Origin: Escherichia phage vB-Eco-KMB41 | Direction: 5' to 3' (one strand) | Sequence record: OR539216.1 | Length of the DNA: 41,822 nt | Part shown: positions 4,444 through 40,638 of the stretch, one piece after another | Layout: the number at the start of each line of letters is the position of its first letter | How positions within the stretch are numbered: position 1 is the first letter of the stretch | The notes under the pieces: generated by a model | Told to the model about the DNA's origin: nothing | What the model saw: the letters and a program-made list of their open reading frames with translations, nothing else | Databases searched by the model: none | Position numbers and translations under genes: made by a program

Positions 4444-4651
4444 AAGCCCCCCGGATAAGCTCGCGGGCGTCGCTCTCTGCCTGAGCCGCTTCGCGCTTTA
4501 AAGCTGCTGTAGCGTGAGGCCCTGCCGCGTACATCTTGAGACGGTTGCGGAGGATCATCGCCACCTCGATCAGAATGTGCGCCTGTTTGAGTAACATCCA
4601 GTTAATCACGACCGCTTTATTTGTTTTGGTCTGAATCAGTGCCTTTTCCAT
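4424..4651 (-). CDS. hypothetical protein (75 aa)
   Basis: ORF with AAGGAG SD 6 nt upstream of ATG. Confidence 0.55.
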   Translation of the reverse strand: MEKALIQTKTNKAVVINWMLLKQAHILIEVAMILRNRLKMYAAGPHATAALKREAAQAESDARELIRGAYGYGAD

Positions 4652-4652
4652 C

Positions 4653-4976
4653 TTAAGCTCCTTTGCTTTCCAGTACGTCGATCACTTTGGTGTAGAAAAC
4701 TTCTTTCGCGCTGAGGGCGGTCAGGCACTCCTCGCGGGTCCGCTTCTTCTCAATACACCAGTAGCAACGGCACAAAGCGGCGCGGAAATAATCCAGTTGC
4801 GGGTCGCTCTTATAATGCGCCTCCAGCTTCTGATTAAGCTCGGCCTCCATCATGGCCTTAAGACCTTTCAGTGACGCCTTACTGGTGCGGATCAGGGTGG
4901 CGTATTTGTGGGCGAAGGCGCGGACCTCTTTCGCTTCCGCCGGGGTGTATTTGATTGTGTTCGGTACTGTAGCCAT
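4653..4976 (-). CDS. hypothetical protein (107 aa)
   Basis: Start set at MATVPN (GAGGA SD upstream); the longer ORF form to 5039 would run through the promoter-like element. Confidence 0.65.
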   Translation of the reverse strand: MATVPNTIKYTPAEAKEVRAFAHKYATLIRTSKASLKGLKAMMEAELNQKLEAHYKSDPQLDYFRAALCRCYWCIEKKRTREECLTALSAKEVFYTKVIDVLESKGA

Positions 4977-5031
4977 TTCGTTGTCCTCGTGTTGGTGTGA
5001 AAAGATAATAACAAAGGATAAGTGAAAGCGC

Positions 5032-5050
5032 TTTAGCAAAAAGTGCTATT
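5032..5050 (-). promoter_or_regulatory. Palindromic box site 2 (TAGCA-AAAAG-TGCTA)
   Basis: Same oriented box, followed about 22 bp downstream (minus sense) by TATTAT, then SD and ATG of 4653..4976. Confidence 0.45.
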
Positions 5051-5054
5051 TGAT

Positions 5055-5076
5055 AAAAAGGCCCCGGAGGGCCTTG
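5055..5076 (-). terminator. Rho-independent terminator (minus sense: GGCCC-TCCG-GGGCC + TTTTT)
   Basis: GC hairpin followed by T5 on the minus strand, right after the stop of 5079..5819. Confidence 0.6.
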
Positions 5077-5078
5077 TG

Positions 5079-5819
5079 TCAGAATGGGGAGTTTTCGATG
5101 AATACCGCGACGGCGAAGCCTTCGGGAGTGGCGGAGCGGATGTTCTTCGTTCGTGTGCTGGATCCTCCCAGCTTCGACCAGCCCGGATTATCCTTCACCG
5201 CCGGGACGCTCTGCGCTGCTGGCATACGGAAGCCGCCACCGCACCAGATCCCCGTCTGCTTCGGGTAAGCATCGCGCGGAGGGTAGATCTCCGGGTATAG
5301 CGTATGCTGGTGGTTCTCCGGCAAGTAGCCGCCGAAGTGGTAAGGGTGGAACCAGTGATCGCAAGGTCGCCACATCGTCGAGAGCCGGGAGATCTTCGGA
5401 TTCTCCAGCATCCAGGGGACCGGGTTCCGGTCCTCATAGTCGCCCTTTTCGTACCCGGCGAACATTGCCACCTGCTCCACCATGCGGGCCAGGTTAACGG
5501 CCTTCTGTTGGAAGCGCGGATCCTTCTTGCGCTTCGCTTCCCACCATCGCGCCCCGGTACAAGTAAGATCCGTACACTCGGCGAAGGATGCAACGAAGAT
5601 CACGCCGGGGCCTACCTCGTCGGCAATGCGAAGCGCTTCCGCTTCCGTGTTCTCTGCGTCGAACATCCGGCCCACACGGATCAGGTTCGGCTCGTTCGGG
5701 TCTGGGTGGATCCCTGGCTCGTGCTGCCCGTCATACATCCAGCATTCGACGCCAGCCTCCAGCCACTTGTCCACCATGATCCGGGTCAGGTTAAAAAGGA
5801 AAATTGCCTTATGCTTCAC
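5079..5819 (-). CDS. hypothetical protein (246 aa), possible nucleic-acid-modifying enzyme
   Basis: Long well-behaved ORF upstream of the terminator; contains ECTDLTC and ENPK stretches but no canonical C5-methyltransferase motif I, so function is left open. Confidence 0.7.
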   Translation of the reverse strand: MKHKAIFLFNLTRIMVDKWLEAGVECWMYDGQHEPGIHPDPNEPNLIRVGRMFDAENTEAEALRIADEVGPGVIFVASFAECTDLTCTGARWWEAKRKKDPRFQQKAVNLARMVEQVAMFAGYEKGDYEDRNPVPWMLENPKISRLSTMWRPCDHWFHPYHFGGYLPENHQHTLYPEIYPPRDAYPKQTGIWCGGGFRMPAAQSVPAVKDNPGWSKLGGSSTRTKNIRSATPEGFAVAVFIENSPF

Positions 5820-6045
5820 GGTTCAGATCCTTCTCGTATTCGTCGGCGTCACGCTTGATCAGCGCGTCCCACTGGTCCATATGGACCGGGTTAAAATCCT
5901 GCTCAAAAGAGAGATCGAGATCCCCGGCGAACAGGAGGCCCTCGGCCTCCGTGTCCACGAGGCCCCGGCGTAGTAGCTCGGCGGCGACCTTCTCCTGGAA
6001 GATGGCCCAGCGGCTATTAGTGTGACCGTCGTTATACTTCATCAC
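5809..6045 (-). CDS. hypothetical acidic protein (78 aa)
   Basis: ORF overlapping both neighbours by a few nt. Confidence 0.55.
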   Translation of the reverse strand: MMKYNDGHTNSRWAIFQEKVAAELLRRGLVDTEAEGLLFAGDLDLSFEQDFNPVHMDQWDALIKRDADEYEKDLNREA

Positions 6046-6626
6046 TAAATCCTCGCTGGCATGATGATCAGCGTTGCGTTGCCGTCCGGCGTTTCGAAGT
6101 CCACGCGGATCGGGTTGGTGTTGCCGTTAAAGCTGAGTTTCGCGAACGGCTTCTTAATGCCGAACTTTTTCCCCAGCTTCTCGATCATTCCGAGGTAAGG
6201 GGTCGCGACGCCGATCACTTCGACGGCCTTCGAGTTCTGGCGGGCCTCGTTCAGCAGACGATCAACGTCGGGATAGTTGGCGTCCACAATGTCCACGGTC
6301 CCCACGGCTACGCGGGCTTTCTTGTGGTCAACGTCGGCGAGGTCCTTCGGCTTGTCTGCCGGAATGTCCAGCCAGTACACGATCCCCGCCTCGGTGTCGA
6401 TCACGGCGGAATAGATCCGCCCAGTCGGTGGCGCGGAGATGTTCAGGATAATCCCCTCCGCTGGAGCCTCGACCAGCTTATGGTCGCTTTCGAGGCAAAC
6501 ATGACCGTTAGACGTGCGGATCCGGCTACCGATGAAGTGGATCGCGTTCAGGTAGTAGCGGACCTCGTTCTGGGCCTTCGTCAGTTGGTGAGCGCGTAAG
6601 GCGCTTACAGGTGCATAAATAATCAT
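6045..6626 (-). CDS. hypothetical protein (193 aa)
   Basis: ORF in replication-associated array; no recognisable motif. Confidence 0.65.
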   Translation of the reverse strand: MIIYAPVSALRAHQLTKAQNEVRYYLNAIHFIGSRIRTSNGHVCLESDHKLVEAPAEGIILNISAPPTGRIYSAVIDTEAGIVYWLDIPADKPKDLADVDHKKARVAVGTVDIVDANYPDVDRLLNEARQNSKAVEVIGVATPYLGMIEKLGKKFGIKKPFAKLSFNGNTNPIRVDFETPDGNATLIIMPARI

Positions 6627-6640
6627 CTCTGGGTCCTCTG

Positions 6641-7282
6641 TTAAATCATGCTTTTGCCGTCGAACATCATTTCCGCCTGGGTCAGATATTCAGTCTTGAT
6701 CGCGCCGCGCTTCTTCGGCTTGATAACGAACATCACAGACGGCTTGCTGTTCTTCTTGCCCGCGACTCCGGTCCCGGCCTTCACGAACGCCACGCGCCCG
6801 GAGTTCTCGCCGTCGCTGGTGATGTGAATAACCAGGCTTGCCGCGTCCAGTGCCTTTTTGAACCACGCCGTAGAGGCGTCGGAGTTCAGGAGAAACACGG
6901 TCGTAACGTCGCGATCCTTCGCTTGCTGGATGGCCTTCACGATCCACGGAAGCGGCTCGGCGTATGGCGGATTACACCAGGCCAGACCGCCCTCGGCTCC
7001 CCACTCCACGCCATCCTTGAGGGCGTCCGTTTTCTCGTCCAGGTAGACGTCACAGAGGGCGTTTTCCTTCTCCGCCGCCACGTCGATCCCGAACTGCCCG
7101 AAGCGCTTCGCGGCCCAGTCGAACAGCCAGCGCGGCGTCTGCCACTTCTGGCGGATAGCGTCCGGCGTGGTGGTCTTGTTGAAGCGGCGACCGCTAACAG
7201 TGGTCACGTCTGCCGCTGCGCGTTCCGCCTCGGTCATGCCGTCCACATGGTCGATCGTGCTGGTGTCTTTCTCGTCTTTCAT
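6641..7282 (-). CDS. DNA N6-adenine methyltransferase (phage Dam type)
   Basis: Contains the catalytic (N/D)PPY motif in context WCNPPYAEP, characteristic of amino-methyltransferases. Confidence 0.8.
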   Translation of the reverse strand: MKDEKDTSTIDHVDGMTEAERAAADVTTVSGRRFNKTTTPDAIRQKWQTPRWLFDWAAKRFGQFGIDVAAEKENALCDVYLDEKTDALKDGVEWGAEGGLAWCNPPYAEPLPWIVKAIQQAKDRDVTTVFLLNSDASTAWFKKALDAASLVIHITSDGENSGRVAFVKAGTGVAGKKNSKPSVMFVIKPKKRGAIKTEYLTQAEMMFDGKSMI

Positions 7283-7338
7283 CTGCTGCCCTTCTGTTGT
7301 TGGTGGTTATTAAAGATAATTGATTAACTGTTTAGTGT

Positions 7339-7357
7339 TTTAACAAAAAGTGCTATT
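7339..7357 (-). promoter_or_regulatory. Palindromic box site 3 (TAACA-AAAAG-TGCTA, one mismatch)
   Basis: Degenerate copy of the oriented box upstream of the methylase gene. Confidence 0.35.
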
Positions 7358-7412
7358 TATGGTTTCTCACGTTTCCCTGTAGCAACATTAGCGCCGCTGG
7401 TATCGACGCTTT

Positions 7413-7438
7413 AGCCCCCGCGCCGGGGCTTTTTTTTT
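7413..7438 (+). terminator. Plus-sense intrinsic terminator-like hairpin (AGCCCC-loop-GGGGCT + T8) inside a minus-strand operon
   Basis: 6-bp GC stem followed by T8 on the plus strand only; abuts the primase stop codon. Confidence 0.45.
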
Positions 7439-8255
7439 ACCCGAACGCGCCAGCCAGATCTCCCCCTATGCAAGCCCTCCCCGTCCTGTCGTAGCCGTAC
7501 AGGAAAACCTCGTCCGGGTCAGTGTAAACGAACCGGATCTCCCGATCGCCGTCGTAGATCGCCGAAGCCTGGACGGCGTTCATAGGCCGGAACGTCAGCC
7601 AGACCTCCGCCTCCCCTCGCGCCGCCACGTTCACGGCATGAGCCGGATCCGCCACGAGATACACCGGAGCGTCCGGCGCTGGGTGGATCAGTCCGACCGC
7701 GCCCCACGTTGGCCCGCCAGCGGCAAACACCACGGACCTGTCGGAGCCGATCTTCGCAACGTTGCACCACGGCCCCAGGGATCCCCCCAGTGGACGAGCG
7801 CATGGAACATACAGGAAGCCGTCCCGCATCGCGCCTTTAGCCATGACTCGCTCGACGTCCTCCGGGGAGAGTTCCCAGTCCTGCGCGGGCTTGTCCTGCT
7901 GCCGGGCATACTTGCGGGCCTCTTTGACGATCGTCTCCCGCTTCTCCGGGGTGAGTCCGCCTATCCAGTCGCCCAGGTCGTTGATCGCCTCGTTGAACGG
8001 CTGCGATCGGCTGGTCATAAACCAAAACATGCCATCACGAGCGCCACCGCACGAGCCGGAACAGTACCCGAAGCCCTCGGCCTTTTTCGTCTGCTGCTTA
8101 TGGCCCCAGCGAAAGCGATCGGTCCCGCCACAGATCGGGCATGGCTGGTGATTGCCGTTAAACGCCTTGCGGTCCCATCCACAGAGATCGAGGAGCGCCT
8201 GTTCCCATTTGCCGGGCATCGCCGCGAGAACGTCCTCTTTTTTATAAATTGCCAT
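7437..8255 (-). CDS. DNA primase (zinc-binding)
   Basis: N-terminal CPICGG...DRFRW zinc-ribbon typical of phage/plasmid primases plus a second Cys cluster; divergent from the helicase gene. Confidence 0.7.
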   Translation of the reverse strand: MAIYKKEDVLAAMPGKWEQALLDLCGWDRKAFNGNHQPCPICGGTDRFRWGHKQQTKKAEGFGYCSGSCGGARDGMFWFMTSRSQPFNEAINDLGDWIGGLTPEKRETIVKEARKYARQQDKPAQDWELSPEDVERVMAKGAMRDGFLYVPCARPLGGSLGPWCNVAKIGSDRSVVFAAGGPTWGAVGLIHPAPDAPVYLVADPAHAVNVAARGEAEVWLTFRPMNAVQASAIYDGDREIRFVYTDPDEVFLYGYDRTGRACIGGDLAGAFG

Positions 8256-8320
8256 CTTGCCCTCCGTTTCTTTCGCGGTTACTATAAATCATGCTTTAGT
8301 GATATTACAAGGGATAAACA

Positions 8321-36120: not shown

Positions 36121-36139
36121 TTTAGCAATTCGTGCTATT
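36121..36139 (-). promoter_or_regulatory. Palindromic box site 5 (TAGCA-ATTCG-TGCTA, perfect)
   Basis: Followed about 22 bp downstream (minus sense) by TATAGT, then GGCGGGA-loop-TCCCGCC hairpin, SD and ATG at 36048; overlaps the stop codon of 36135..36416. Confidence 0.55.
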
Positions 36140-36756: not shown

Positions 36757-37033
36757 CGGCTGGTCCCTCCTGCATGTTGTCGGCGACCTGCTGCATATAG
36801 ATCGCGTAAAGGTTCTGGCCTATCGCCAGGATATCCTCCGGGCGGAGCAATGCCCGCGCCGTGTGAGGGTTGGAGAGCGCCGCCACCAGGACGTCCCGCT
36901 GGCGATGGTTAAGCCGGACCTCGCTCCACGGTGCGGAGTTCGCCATCTGGATCACCTGCTCGATCTTGAGGTGGTCGAACCAGACAAGGATCTCCGGCTT
37001 CGGCTCCTGCTCCTGCTGCTCGTCGATCACCAT
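36746..37033 (-). CDS. hypothetical protein (95 aa)
   Basis: ORF in tightly packed co-directional array. Confidence 0.55.
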   Translation of the reverse strand: MVIDEQQEQEPKPEILVWFDHLKIEQVIQMANSAPWSEVRLNHRQRDVLVAALSNPHTARALLRPEDILAIGQNLYAIYMQQVADNMQEGPADGL

Positions 37034-37386
37034 TCGCCCGGCTCCTTCGCGTCGCGGTAGCCCATGATCAGCGCTTGCACGACGTCGAACACGTCAGCCC
37101 TGATCGACTGGTGGAGGAACAGCCCGAAGTGTCGGCGTTGCACTCCGTCCGAGAGGTTCCAGTGTTGGAGGTGGTAGTCATGTAAGACCATCGGCTCCAT
37201 CTTGGGCGGCTCGTCCCTGGTCAGGTCGATCAGCGTGTCGTCGTGCTTGAACTCAATCTCCCTGATCATCTGCGTGTCAGGTGTTACGGTGCGGCGCTTG
37301 CCGTCGAACGGCCCGCCGATCAGCAGGGCCAGCATGTACTCCGGTACGGCTGGCGGCTGGTGGTTGCGGTAATGTGTCGGGTGCAT
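37027..37386 (-). CDS. hypothetical protein (119 aa)
   Basis: ORF preceded by GC hairpin and GGGAGGA SD. Confidence 0.6.
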   Translation of the reverse strand: MHPTHYRNHQPPAVPEYMLALLIGGPFDGKRRTVTPDTQMIREIEFKHDDTLIDLTRDEPPKMEPMVLHDYHLQHWNLSDGVQRRHFGLFLHQSIRADVFDVVQALIMGYRDAKEPGEW

Positions 37387-37780: not shown

Positions 37781-37799
37781 TTTAGCAATTCGTGCTATT
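37781..37799 (-). promoter_or_regulatory. Palindromic box site 6 (TAGCA-ATTCG-TGCTA, perfect)
   Basis: Followed about 22 bp downstream (minus sense) by TAATAT, then GGGCG-loop-CGCCC hairpin and the ATG at about 37707. Confidence 0.55.
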
Positions 37800-38982: not shown

Positions 38983-40638
38983 TTAAAAGTCGTTCAGATC
39001 GTCGTCCTGATCCTCCGCTTTTGAGGATGGTTTCCAGTCCGTCGGGAGTGGCTTCTGATCGCGGATTCCACCCAGGAGCGGAGCCGCTTCTTTCGTGGCG
39101 GTCAGCGTCTCGTCTCCGGCGACCTTGATGATCCCCATCGTGTTAGTGGCGTGAAGGAATGCGCGACGGAATGCCGTCTTGTCGATCTGCGGGTCCGCGC
39201 TGTTCCGCGCCCACTCACTGAGCGCCGCCTTTGTCAGCTTCGGAGTGCGGCCTCTGCGCTTGCTGTTGTACTCGTGGACGAAGTTCACCAGTCGGATCGC
39301 GTTCTCCTCCTGCTGGCTGCGCTTCGGCCCCTCGTCGGCCTTCTCCTCCTTGTCGCCAGTCGGTACAGCCTCCAGCGCGTTAATGACGACCAGCGTCCCC
39401 AGGTTGTCGCCAATCTCCCACGCTGCCGGGTTCTGCTGCGCTTCGGGGCGTACTGGCTTCATGCGGGCCATTGCCTCGCGCTTCATCTTGACCAGTTCAG
39501 GCGGGAGCGGGACGGATTGCGTCCGCATGGCGCGAGGAGGGAGGAGCGCACAGCCTTTCGCCTTCGTGTGCTCAATGACAAAAAGCTCCTTGTCCTTGCA
39601 CTTCTTCACCATGATCTCGAATCCGGCGTTTGCCCGGAGGGTTGACGCGCCACGAGCGCCGCGCTCGGTGTCCTTCCCGGTGTGGTGGATCACCATCACG
39701 GCACAGTTGAGCATTTCCGCCAGCTTCGCCGCGTTCGCCATCAGGATCGCCGCCACGTTGTTGTCGTTCTCGTTGAAGTCCTGCCCGCCTACCCATTCGA
39801 TCACCTTGCCGTCCGCGTCACGCTTCGCGGTCTGGCCCACCTTCTGGCCCGCGCTGTTGGCGCTGTAGGTATCAATGACCACGAGGGCCGGTGCGTTCTC
39901 CTCAATGCCGAAGAACGGGGAGGAGAGGACCTTCCCGGCGAAGCGCTGGAGGATCTCCGCGTTATGGAGGGGGACCTGTTCGCCGATGATAAACAGGTTA
40001 TTCAGATCCTTGTTGCCGTTGCGCTTGTACTTCCATCCCGCGTAACGTTCACGGACGCCGCTCGCATCCTCCGGCGCGAAGTACAGGACGGATCCCTGTC
40101 GGACCGGAAGCCCGGCGAAGTCGATCCCGGTGGCGACACAAATCGCCATCTGTAACGCGCAAAAAGTCTTTTTAGCGCCCGACTCGCCGACCAGGAAGCC
40201 CACGGAGCGCTCCGGGACCAGCGACTGGATCACATAGTTAACGGGGGTGATTTTGTTCCCGGCGCGTAACTTGTCCAGGAACTCGTCCGGCTGGTCTGCC
40301 AGCAGTTCGGCGATCGCCTTCTTGTCCTTCTCGCGCTGGTCCTCTGTCGTCTCGCTGCGTGGCTTCGCGACGGGCTTCTGGTTCTCGTCCAGTACGAGGT
40401 CCCACTGGTGATCGTCCTCATTGTCGCCGAACGCGTAAAGCTCCATCTCCGCCAGTGATAGGCCCTGCTCTGCTGCCTGGTCTGCCGCGATCGCCATCTG
40501 CTGGTCCATGTCCGCCTCTGTCGGCTCCGGCGCTGCGTTCAGCCATTCCGGGACGGGTTCCAGACGAGCCTCGCCTGGGAGGATCTGGTCCAGTAGTTCC
40601 TCGCGGGTCGGTTCCTGCTGTTCTTCGTCGTGCATCAT
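38983..40638 (-). CDS. RecA-fold ATPase of the AAA_25/RepA-like type (putative replication initiator or helicase), 551 aa
   Basis: Walker A GESGAKKT, Walker B LVVIDTYS, downstream VMVIHHTGKD motif typical of RepA-like ATPases; acidic N-terminal ~130 aa; flanked on both sides by GGTTAC repeat clusters. Confidence 0.75.
   Translation of the reverse strand: MMHDEEQQEPTREELLDQILPGEARLEPVPEWLNAAPEPTEADMDQQMAIAADQAAEQGLSLAEMELYAFGDNEDDHQWDLVLDENQKPVAKPRSETTEDQREKDKKAIAELLADQPDEFLDKLRAGNKITPVNYVIQSLVPERSVGFLVGESGAKKTFCALQMAICVATGIDFAGLPVRQGSVLYFAPEDASGVRERYAGWKYKRNGNKDLNNLFIIGEQVPLHNAEILQRFAGKVLSSPFFGIEENAPALVVIDTYSANSAGQKVGQTAKRDADGKVIEWVGGQDFNENDNNVAAILMANAAKLAEMLNCAVMVIHHTGKDTERGARGASTLRANAGFEIMVKKCKDKELFVIEHTKAKGCALLPPRAMRTQSVPLPPELVKMKREAMARMKPVRPEAQQNPAAWEIGDNLGTLVVINALEAVPTGDKEEKADEGPKRSQQEENAIRLVNFVHEYNSKRRGRTPKLTKAALSEWARNSADPQIDKTAFRRAFLHATNTMGIIKVAGDETLTATKEAAPLLGGIRDQKPLPTDWKPSSKAEDQDDDLNDF

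Follow-up and report, generated by a model that had tools for sequence, protein, structure and literature searches.

A putative Dcm-like cytosine methyltransferase and a truncated sliding-clamp homologue in one gene cassette of a Murrayvirus-like coliphage

In this study we examined a stretch of 41,822 nucleotides (nt) from Escherichia phage vB-Eco-KMB41 (sequence record OR539216.1; this whole stretch is the window referred to below) and found that two proteins encoded at positions 5079-6626, one of 193 and one of 246 amino acids (aa), can be assigned to families. As judged from sequence comparison and structure prediction, the 193-aa protein is a truncated homologue of the beta sliding clamp, derived from a proteobacterial dnaN gene, and is called the mini-clamp here. 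The 246-aa protein is predicted by the same means to be a compact Dcm-like C5-cytosine DNA methyltransferase and a member of a family that has already been tested experimentally. In the early DNA-metabolism region, four genes (Dam, truncated clamp, orf78, Dcm-like) appear to make up a cassette whose distal part is this interval, and we think it likely that the cassette combines a cytosine methyltransferase with a mini-clamp that bears a partner-binding pocket and does not form a ring. A first-pass annotation had listed two long open reading frames (ORFs) here. Both are present exactly at the positions it gave (Table 1) and encode conserved full-length proteins; a third gene between them, orf78, had been missed. 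The truncated clamp is the more interesting part of the finding, being a conserved replication-module protein with a putative role in partner binding.

When the 193-aa protein was searched singly, it matched phrog_3007 only ('RusA-like Holliday junction resolvase'), apart from two faint matches to polymerase processivity factors. Its family, with matches in 237 phage records and 139 representatives at 50% clustering, nearly all of them 165-215 aa long, gave a clearer result: a profile built from 73 members aligned with the E. coli beta clamp at an E-value of 1.7e-21, in two pieces covering DnaN 136-301 and 312-366. PF02767, the central clamp domain, was matched singly by 34 of these 73 members, whose consensus reads D-V-R-Y-Y-L-N-G...A-T-N-G-H...I-D-G-x-x-P-D...I-G-x-N-x-x-Y-L...I-M-P-x-R. 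The predicted structure (predicted local distance difference test, pLDDT, 96.0) has three half-domain units, the middle one without its helix. The 193-aa protein thus has both the fold of a clamp and sequence homology to it, and no methyltransferase or nuclease features were found in it. It had been suggested earlier that both proteins could serve DNA modification or anti-restriction; a role in modification is supported for the 246-aa protein, whereas the 193-aa protein turned out to have confident homology to the beta sliding clamp, a replication accessory protein, which is the kind of result that the first-pass annotation itself had named as speaking against its proposal.

The family was aligned with DnaN of E. 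coli MG1655 (366 aa) to see which parts of the clamp are kept. Residues 1-120 of the mini-clamp pair with domain II (DnaN 126-250), and residues ~134-193 pair with the beta-alpha-beta-beta-beta unit that ends domain III (DnaN 312-366), the true C-terminus included. Neither domain I nor DnaN 251-311 has a counterpart in the alignment, so that a three-domain architecture was not recovered, and the model lacks the second inner, channel-lining helix of domain II. The dimer interface of the E. coli beta clamp is formed by domain I against the first half of domain III. Since the absent parts are those in which this interface lies, the ring-closing elements of DnaN are gone and a dimer interface was not found. 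The cleft that receives clamp-binding motifs is, at sequence level, retained. At 20 cleft positions, taken from established structural work, mean identity to E. coli DnaN across the 73 members was 67%, whereas the 145 remaining aligned positions gave 19% (permutation p < 1e-5). Of the 15 columns that vary least in the family, ten belong to the cleft, namely R152, Y154, L155, G174, H175, P242, Y323, M362, P363 and R365 of DnaN, which are R23, Y25, L26, G41, H42, P119, Y144, M189, P190 and R192 in the window protein. P242, V247, M362 and P363 have been implicated experimentally as cleft residues of DnaN. The proteins also differ in charge: the median isoelectric point (pI) of the family is 8.6, with 57 of 73 members above 7.5, and that of E. 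coli DnaN is 5.25. In an earlier survey of viral clamps, non-ring factors with direct DNA binding were associated with a raised pI and the lack of a clamp loader, and phages of this genome size were noted usually to have no clamp homologues.

A DNA polymerase was not found among the window proteins scanned, nor in the annotation of the related phage IME_EC2, nor in the inspected stretches of other loci. Besides the primase (Table 1), the window encodes a 551-aa protein (38983-40638, minus strand) with an AAA_25 RepA/DnaB-type helicase domain (1.5e-25), which is labelled 'DNA primase' in RefSeq relatives and has weak similarity to primase-polymerase PHROGs, a 679-aa helicase of superfamily 2, SSB, an Erf-like protein, an exonuclease, a VRR-NUC protein and an endonuclease VII-like protein. 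Taken together, two helicases and a single small primase, but no polymerase, seem to be present in the phage. Related mini-clamp loci, 80 in total, were retrieved from IMG/VR with a search seeded by a 12-sequence subset, as the family-wide alignment was too divergent. In 27 of the 80 loci, which are lambdoid, the gene is flanked on its two sides by cII and replication genes, or adjoins one of these, and RepO, DnaB or DnaC-like genes follow downstream in the three that were checked with Pfam (for example cII / clamp / RepO / DnaB). About 33 further loci have the gene behind a ParB-like helix-turn-helix protein, as in Cedarrivervirus Sf11. The commonest context of the mini-clamp is the replication module.

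From these features we infer an oligomeric state, a mode of binding, a ligand and a physiological effect for the mini-clamp. It would have arisen from a proteobacterial dnaN by loss of the parts that close the ring (domain I and the first half of domain III), while the cleft for clamp-binding motifs would have stayed nearly unchanged. Such a protein would not encircle DNA as DnaN does and might act as a pocket module that is soluble or bound directly to DNA. It could capture proteins with clamp-binding motifs, candidates being the alpha or epsilon subunit of the host DNA polymerase III (Pol III), the delta clamp-loader subunit with its wrench, Hda, and factors of repair, mismatch repair or translesion synthesis. 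The delta wrench of the clamp loader prefers monomeric beta. Captured partners, of the host or, less likely, of the phage, might be coupled to, or diverted for, the replication of a phage that needs the host polymerase. Our specific proposal is therefore that the mini-clamp might be a pocket-only derivative of the host clamp, working either as an adaptor for the phage replisome or as a decoy that disarms host replication control or repair, and representing a class that has not been described; we put this forward tentatively, as a possibility that falls well short of an even chance.

Several points speak against our general reading of the mini-clamp. The mini-clamp of the window is itself only weakly basic (pI 7.8). 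Retention of the cleft may in part reflect constraints of the fold, because the cleft residues are also the most conserved ones of true clamps. The third structural unit aligns, at a lower score, to either half of DnaN domain III, and the phage's own proteins yielded no clamp-binding motif that convinced us. Two candidates for such a motif were considered and rejected. The C-terminus of Dam, ...TQAEMMFDGKSMI, resembles QxxMxF and also QADMF, the internal clamp-binding motif of Pol III alpha, and is conserved in IME_EC2 and Sortsne; it lies within the Pfam Dam domain and is missing from the Dams of Skarpretter-like phages and of the Pantoea myophage PSKM, and the resemblance is probably coincidental. 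The LDLSF of orf78 was rejected because its fourth position varies among homologues (L, D, M, A) and because the orf78 family is also found in a record of phage Bas01 that showed no clamp-like gene.

A different reading would make the mini-clamp a true sliding clamp after all, assembled into a new kind of ring (for example of four protomers with three half-domains each, twelve in total), loaded by the host clamp loader and giving processivity to the host Pol III. The clamp fold, the intact pocket for polymerase and clamp loader, and the location in replication modules of phages that need the host polymerase would all suit it. A shorter dnaN product of E. coli, beta* (domains II-III), is reportedly functional as a trimeric ring. 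However, the protein has neither domain I nor DnaN 251-311, in which the strands of the dimer interface lie, and domain II is modelled without its second channel-lining helix. Simple rotation of a 1.5-domain protomer cannot build up a ring, and the raised pI of the family is the property that the survey linked to non-ring clamps. We regard a ring as improbable for these reasons.

The neighbours of the mini-clamp gene suggest another possibility, namely that the protein holds DNA-modification enzymes to replicating DNA, in the manner of PCNA and DNMT1; Dam, the Dcm-like enzyme or Nmad5 could be tethered in this way. Eight of the 80 loci (of Murray-, Sortsne- and Skarpretter-type) show the order primase / Dam / mini-clamp / (orf78) / Dcm-like. 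From Dam onwards this order, with an orf78 homologue in third place, is kept in the podophage clade and recurs in the unrelated Pantoea myophage PSKM. The mini-clamp gene of a Vibrio phage is followed by Dam and SSB. Dhillonvirus EP23, a Shigella phage, carries at 4977-6335 a two-gene island of mini-clamp and Nmad5 (PF18757, 2.2e-58), with oppositely oriented structural genes around it. Moreover, no palindromic tetramer is more over-represented in the window than GATC. Yet most family members do not stand beside a modification gene, as the lambdoid loci and those behind ParB-like genes demonstrate, the 'QAEMMF' at the C-terminus of Dam falls inside the Pfam domain and is not conserved in Skarpretter-like relatives, and no clamp-binding motif was found in the Dcm-like family. 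The link to DNA-modification genes is recurrent and not general, and we consider a tethering role unlikely. As to the EP23 island, a missense change in Nmad5 has been reported as an escape from the Tmn defence system, and the parts of the Tmn paper available to us do not mention the clamp-like neighbour gene. The Dhillonvirus anti-Tmn protein was considered as a possible mini-clamp and rejected, being a helical, rod-shaped protein.

Turning to the 246-aa protein, its assignment as a Dcm-like methyltransferase is based on homology to a tested enzyme together with the predicted fold. It matches phrog_757 ('DNA methyltransferase') at 4.5e-65 over residues 1-244 and has 452 database homologues of ~230-260 aa, many of them named 'Dcm methylase' at source. 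In tblastn searches the family was found in 1478 phage records, among them Drexlerviridae, Jersey-like, Webervirus, rV5-like and some T4-like phages. Identity is 36% over the full length to bas06_0055 of phage KarlJaspers (Bas06) (E-value 1e-49) and 38% to the orthologue of Bas01 (E-value 5e-50). A preprint on retron Ec86 reported that escape mutants of phage K42, a relative of KarlJaspers/Bas06, all disrupt a 711-bp gene for a 'Dcm-like C5 cytosine methyltransferase', that expression of K42 dcm activates the retron, that 5-methylcytosine (5mC) is detected on Ec86 msDNA by mass spectrometry coupled to liquid chromatography (LC-MS), and that there is a dependence on a CCWGG site. The K42 enzyme was inactivated by C82A, E128A, K175A and K176A, residues that had been chosen by AlphaFold superposition on DNMT3A. 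The gene bas06_0055 is likewise 711 bp long and carries C82, E128, K175 and K176, which correspond to C82, E139, K187 and Q188 of the 246-aa protein.

In an alignment of 38 sequences of the family, C82, E139 and K187 are invariant, as are the blocks F79-x-E81-C82-T83, E139-N140-P141, R151 and Y185-x-K187-x-T189-x-x-W192 and a C-terminal block T-K-x-I-R-S-x-T-P-x-G-F-A. The AlphaFold2 model (pLDDT 92.3) has a class I methyltransferase fold that is nearest to C5-methyltransferases. Cys82 follows directly after the central strand (73-78) and ENP closes the next strand (136-141). Motifs IV and VI of C5-cytosine methyltransferases are placed in this way; their spelling here is a variant one, with EC or PC in motif IV and ENP in motif VI. 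The first-pass annotation had seen no canonical motif in either protein, which is wrong for the 246-aa protein, since ECTDLT (E81-C82) and ENP (139-141) are invariant in the family; its remark that ECTDLTC and ENPK recall a nucleotide-modifying enzyme was well aimed. Given the work on the homologue and the mapping of residues, the first of these stretches is the motif with the catalytic Cys (C82) and the second the ENV-type motif with E139, both of a known and tested family. By analogy with such enzymes, Cys82 would attack C6 of a flipped-out cytosine, the methyl group of S-adenosylmethionine (SAM) would be transferred, and Glu139 of ENP would contact the base. This would give 5mC, possibly at CCWGG, in replicating phage DNA and in whatever other DNA the cell contains.

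A number of results weigh against this assignment. Sequence searches in Pfam, NCBIfam and the PDB were empty for the 246-aa protein, singly or as an alignment of 38 relatives, so that no link to PF00145 was obtained, and none of the 38 relatives had a Pfam match of its own. An hhalign comparison of the family with E. coli Dcm gave a probability of 1.2%, the sole local alignment falling on motif IV. Foldseek found no match to the model at E <= 1e-3, with DNMT1 and 3g7u at TM-scores of 0.40; this is marginal, and hence the evidence from the fold alone is moderate. The motif I loop of the 246-aa protein, FLFNLTRIM, lacks a glycine, where the family has FLFDxTGxM as its consensus past strand 1. 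Strand 2 ends in an invariant Asp30, at the expected place of the ribose-binding acid. K176 of the tested enzyme is Gln188 here. An identity of 36% is too low for site specificity to be transferred, and the experimental support comes from a preprint on a homologue, not from the 246-aa protein itself. As to a possible anti-restriction role, the BASEL study did not find a simple link between such methyltransferase genes and resistance to restriction, and the one homologue tested is best known for triggering a host defence, retron Ec86.

One might ask whether the 246-aa protein yields another modification, or acts at a site other than CCWGG, for example with a carboxy-SAM (Cx-SAM) cofactor or as the start of a hypermodification. 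We rate this as very unlikely. The tested homologue gave 5mC by LC-MS, the catalytic residues are ordinary, and neither the window proteins scanned nor the annotation of IME_EC2 showed a Cx-SAM synthase or another hypermodification gene.

Labels in public records are inconsistent for both genes. The window belongs to a Murrayvirus-like coliphage of podovirus type, the relatives of which are ~41-42 kb long, and over positions 4600-8300 it shows a nucleotide identity of about 89-90% with IME_EC2, Escherichia phage sortsyn, Phage ST231 and Salmonella phage Lumpael, with remoter matches to Sortsne, IME279 and Kosakonia phage Kc237. The records of the relatives call the 246-aa gene 'Dcm methylase', 'putative DNA cytosine C5 methyltransferase', 'DNA methyltransferase' or 'hypothetical', and the 193-aa gene 'putative beta-clamp protein', 'RusA-like Holliday junction resolvase' or 'hypothetical'; across databases the clamp-like family appears as 'RusA-like resolvase', 'DNA polymerase III beta subunit' or 'hypothetical'. 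That the 193-aa protein is a RusA-like Holliday junction resolvase, for which the phrog_3007 label copied into RefSeq records is the sole support, can practically be dismissed, as the fold and profile evidence refutes it: no RusA structure was among the fold matches listed for the model, and neither a RusA fold nor a RusA profile was recovered. It follows from the clamp fold and profile that the RefSeq and PHROG label is wrong and that the name first given in GenBank, 'putative beta-clamp protein', is correct within its limits. The label of phrog_3007 has spread to RefSeq NC_047742, NC_048113, NC_048178, NC_047862, NC_016566 and others.

The layout of the locus is summarized in Table 1. Dam, the clamp-like gene, orf78 and the Dcm-like gene look like a tight transcription unit of their own, because only 14 nt separate Dam from the clamp-like gene, orf78 shares 1 nt with the clamp-like gene and 11 nt with the methyltransferase gene, a 154-nt spacer lies before Dam, and a terminator-like hairpin follows the last gene. 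This hairpin has a folding free energy of -14.5 kcal/mol (z -3.2), and none of 200 shuffled sequences folded as well. From the sequence we read purine-rich ribosome-binding sites 8-10 nt upstream of both the 246-aa and the 193-aa ORF. The proposed co-transcription of the two genes with Dam and the primase is thus well supported by the packing as regards Dam, and not as regards the primase, from which the unit is set off by the spacer with its GC hairpin. The primase is probably a separate transcription unit; a shared transcript is possible and not indicated. The spacer also contains a 20-nt element, AAATAGCACTTTTTGTTAAA; a further copy lies directly past the 246-aa gene, and one with three mismatches is found near 37.8 kb. 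The 20-nt match AAATAGCACTTTTTGYTAAA has three occurrences in the window, with none expected. A GC-rich palindromic hairpin, AGCCCCGGCGCGGGGGCT, is found at 7414-7431, just past the stop codon of the primase. It is flanked by a minus-strand A-run and a plus-strand T-run and scores as a terminator for plus-strand transcription only, and the adjoining genes are on the minus strand.

Table 1. Positions of the cassette genes, their key codons and nearby signals in the window
Feature	Position	Strand	Assignment or evidence
Dcm-like gene, 246 aa, GTG start	5079-5819	-	Predicted compact Dcm-like C5-cytosine DNA methyltransferase
Codon of putative catalytic Cys82, Dcm-like gene	5574-5576	-	
Codons E139-N140-P141, Dcm-like gene	5397-5405	-	
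orf78, 78 aa, acidic (77 aa from ATG at 6042)	5809-6045	-	phrog_2676 at 7.6e-18
Mini-clamp gene, 193 aa, ATG start	6045-6626	-	Homologue of DnaN domain II and C-terminal half of domain III
Mini-clamp pocket motif R23-Y-Y-L-N27	6546-6560	-	
Mini-clamp C-terminal M189-P-A-R192	6051-6062	-	
Dam N6-adenine methyltransferase, 213 aa, first cassette gene	6641-7282	-	PF05869 1.7e-45; TIGR01712 2.6e-35
Primase, 272 aa, context gene	7437-8255	-	phrog_510 7.9e-52; PF08273 1.7e-06
Promoter-like site upstream of primase	8310-8281		
Terminator-like hairpin, 3 nt past the stop of the 246-aa gene	5058-5075	-	7-bp stem, tetraloop, then U-run
Palindrome TAGCA-N5-TGTTA, ~60 nt upstream of Dam start	7341-7355	-	Candidate operator/promoter element
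Second palindrome copy TAGCACTTTTTGCTA, just past the terminator, upstream of the next minus-strand gene block	5034-5048	-	

The cassette is bracketed by two copies of a 15-bp palindrome, TAGCA-N5-TG(C/T)TA, which occurs five times in the window, at the two places given in Table 1 and at 64-78, 36123-36137 and 37783-37797. Most copies have the longer context AAATAGCAC.....TGYTAAA. The three copies that were examined (the two of Table 1 and the one at 37783-37797) are intergenic and lie ~55-80 nt upstream of minus-strand gene blocks, and IME_EC2 has six copies, some of them at corresponding positions; the palindrome was not found in the stretch of Sortsne that was examined. It looks like an operator or a phage-specific promoter element. 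The core of the orf78 family is L-[DE]-x-S-[FY], an acidic stretch and then Y, with LD[LM]SFE.DY in most members. Homologues hold the same position between mini-clamp and Dcm-like gene in IME_EC2/Murrayvirus, in Skarpretter-like phages and in the Pantoea myophage PSKM, while that of the Drexlerviridae phage Bas01 follows a helicase gene. The homologues of loci L015 and L006 are at 5575-5820 and 36817-37038. Regarding base composition, GATC occurs 487 times in the window (1 per 86 bp), compared with 235 +/- 12 in dinucleotide shuffles, and its observed/expected ratio under a maximal-order Markov model is 1.41. This very high density of Dam sites is seen in a phage that encodes its own Dam. CTAG is nearly absent (3 sites, observed/expected 0.08). 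An enrichment of CCWGG was considered as well: the site is 1.8-fold more frequent than in dinucleotide shuffles, but its observed/expected ratio of 0.82 under a third-order Markov model means that there is no real enrichment, and the site is not avoided either.

In conclusion, the assignment of the methyltransferase corrects 'hypothetical protein' labels and, if it is true, predicts that the phage methylates cytosines whatever its previous host and that it is sensitive to hosts with retron Ec86. The methyltransferase belongs to an experimentally studied family, whereas the 1.5-domain architecture of the mini-clamp and its selective retention of the cleft appear to be undescribed, as our literature search found no paper on a truncated phage beta clamp and no functional test of one; in databases the family is already loosely labelled 'beta subunit' or 'clamp'. 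A few hundred phage genomes carry this remnant of DnaN, 170-215 aa long, the most conserved residues of which are those of the partner-binding cleft. If indeed the cleft were to bind partners without a ring, it might be a new way for small polymerase-less phages to plug into the host replisome or to interfere with it, and the beta-clamp pocket, an antibiotic target, would be available on a minimal scaffold of natural origin. The correction of the RusA label matters for automated annotation in any case.

Compared with known systems, the 246-aa protein is closest to the Dcm of K42/KarlJaspers. The two are of one family (236 and 246 aa, aligned over their full length) and share Cys82, the ENP glutamate, Lys175/187, the C-terminal RTK.IRS.TP.GFA motif and an AlphaFold resemblance to DNMT3. 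They differ in the phage that carries them, a Drexlerviridae siphovirus there and a Murrayvirus-like podovirus here, in the glutamine that replaces K176, and in a 10-residue insertion past the long helix of the 246-aa protein. With the PF00145 enzymes (E. coli Dcm, M.HhaI, DNMT3A/B) the predicted structure has in common a Rossmann-type fold, a Cys directly after strand 4, E-N-x closing strand 5 and, towards the C-terminus, a TP-R-x-x motif, and DNMT3B is its best structural match. In contrast to them it has no detectable sequence-profile similarity, it spells its motifs EC/PC instead of PCQ and ENP instead of ENV, it lacks the FxGxG glycines of motif I and a separate target-recognition domain, and it is ~80-230 residues shorter. 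The mini-clamp family resembles non-ring factors of the UL42 type in its raised pI and in having no cognate clamp loader. Herpesvirus UL42, however, consists of two full clamp domains and binds its own viral polymerase, whereas the mini-clamp has three half-domains and comes from a phage in which no polymerase was found. E. coli DnaN has three domains and is acidic; the mini-clamp has 1.5, without domain I, residues 251-311 and one inner helix, and is near neutral to basic. The setting differs from that of bacterial clamps too, as the mini-clamp is phage-encoded and stands in replication modules in which neither a clamp loader nor a polymerase was found. Finally, beta* is said, in papers of 1996, to start like the mini-clamp at the beginning of domain II and to keep the whole of domain III.

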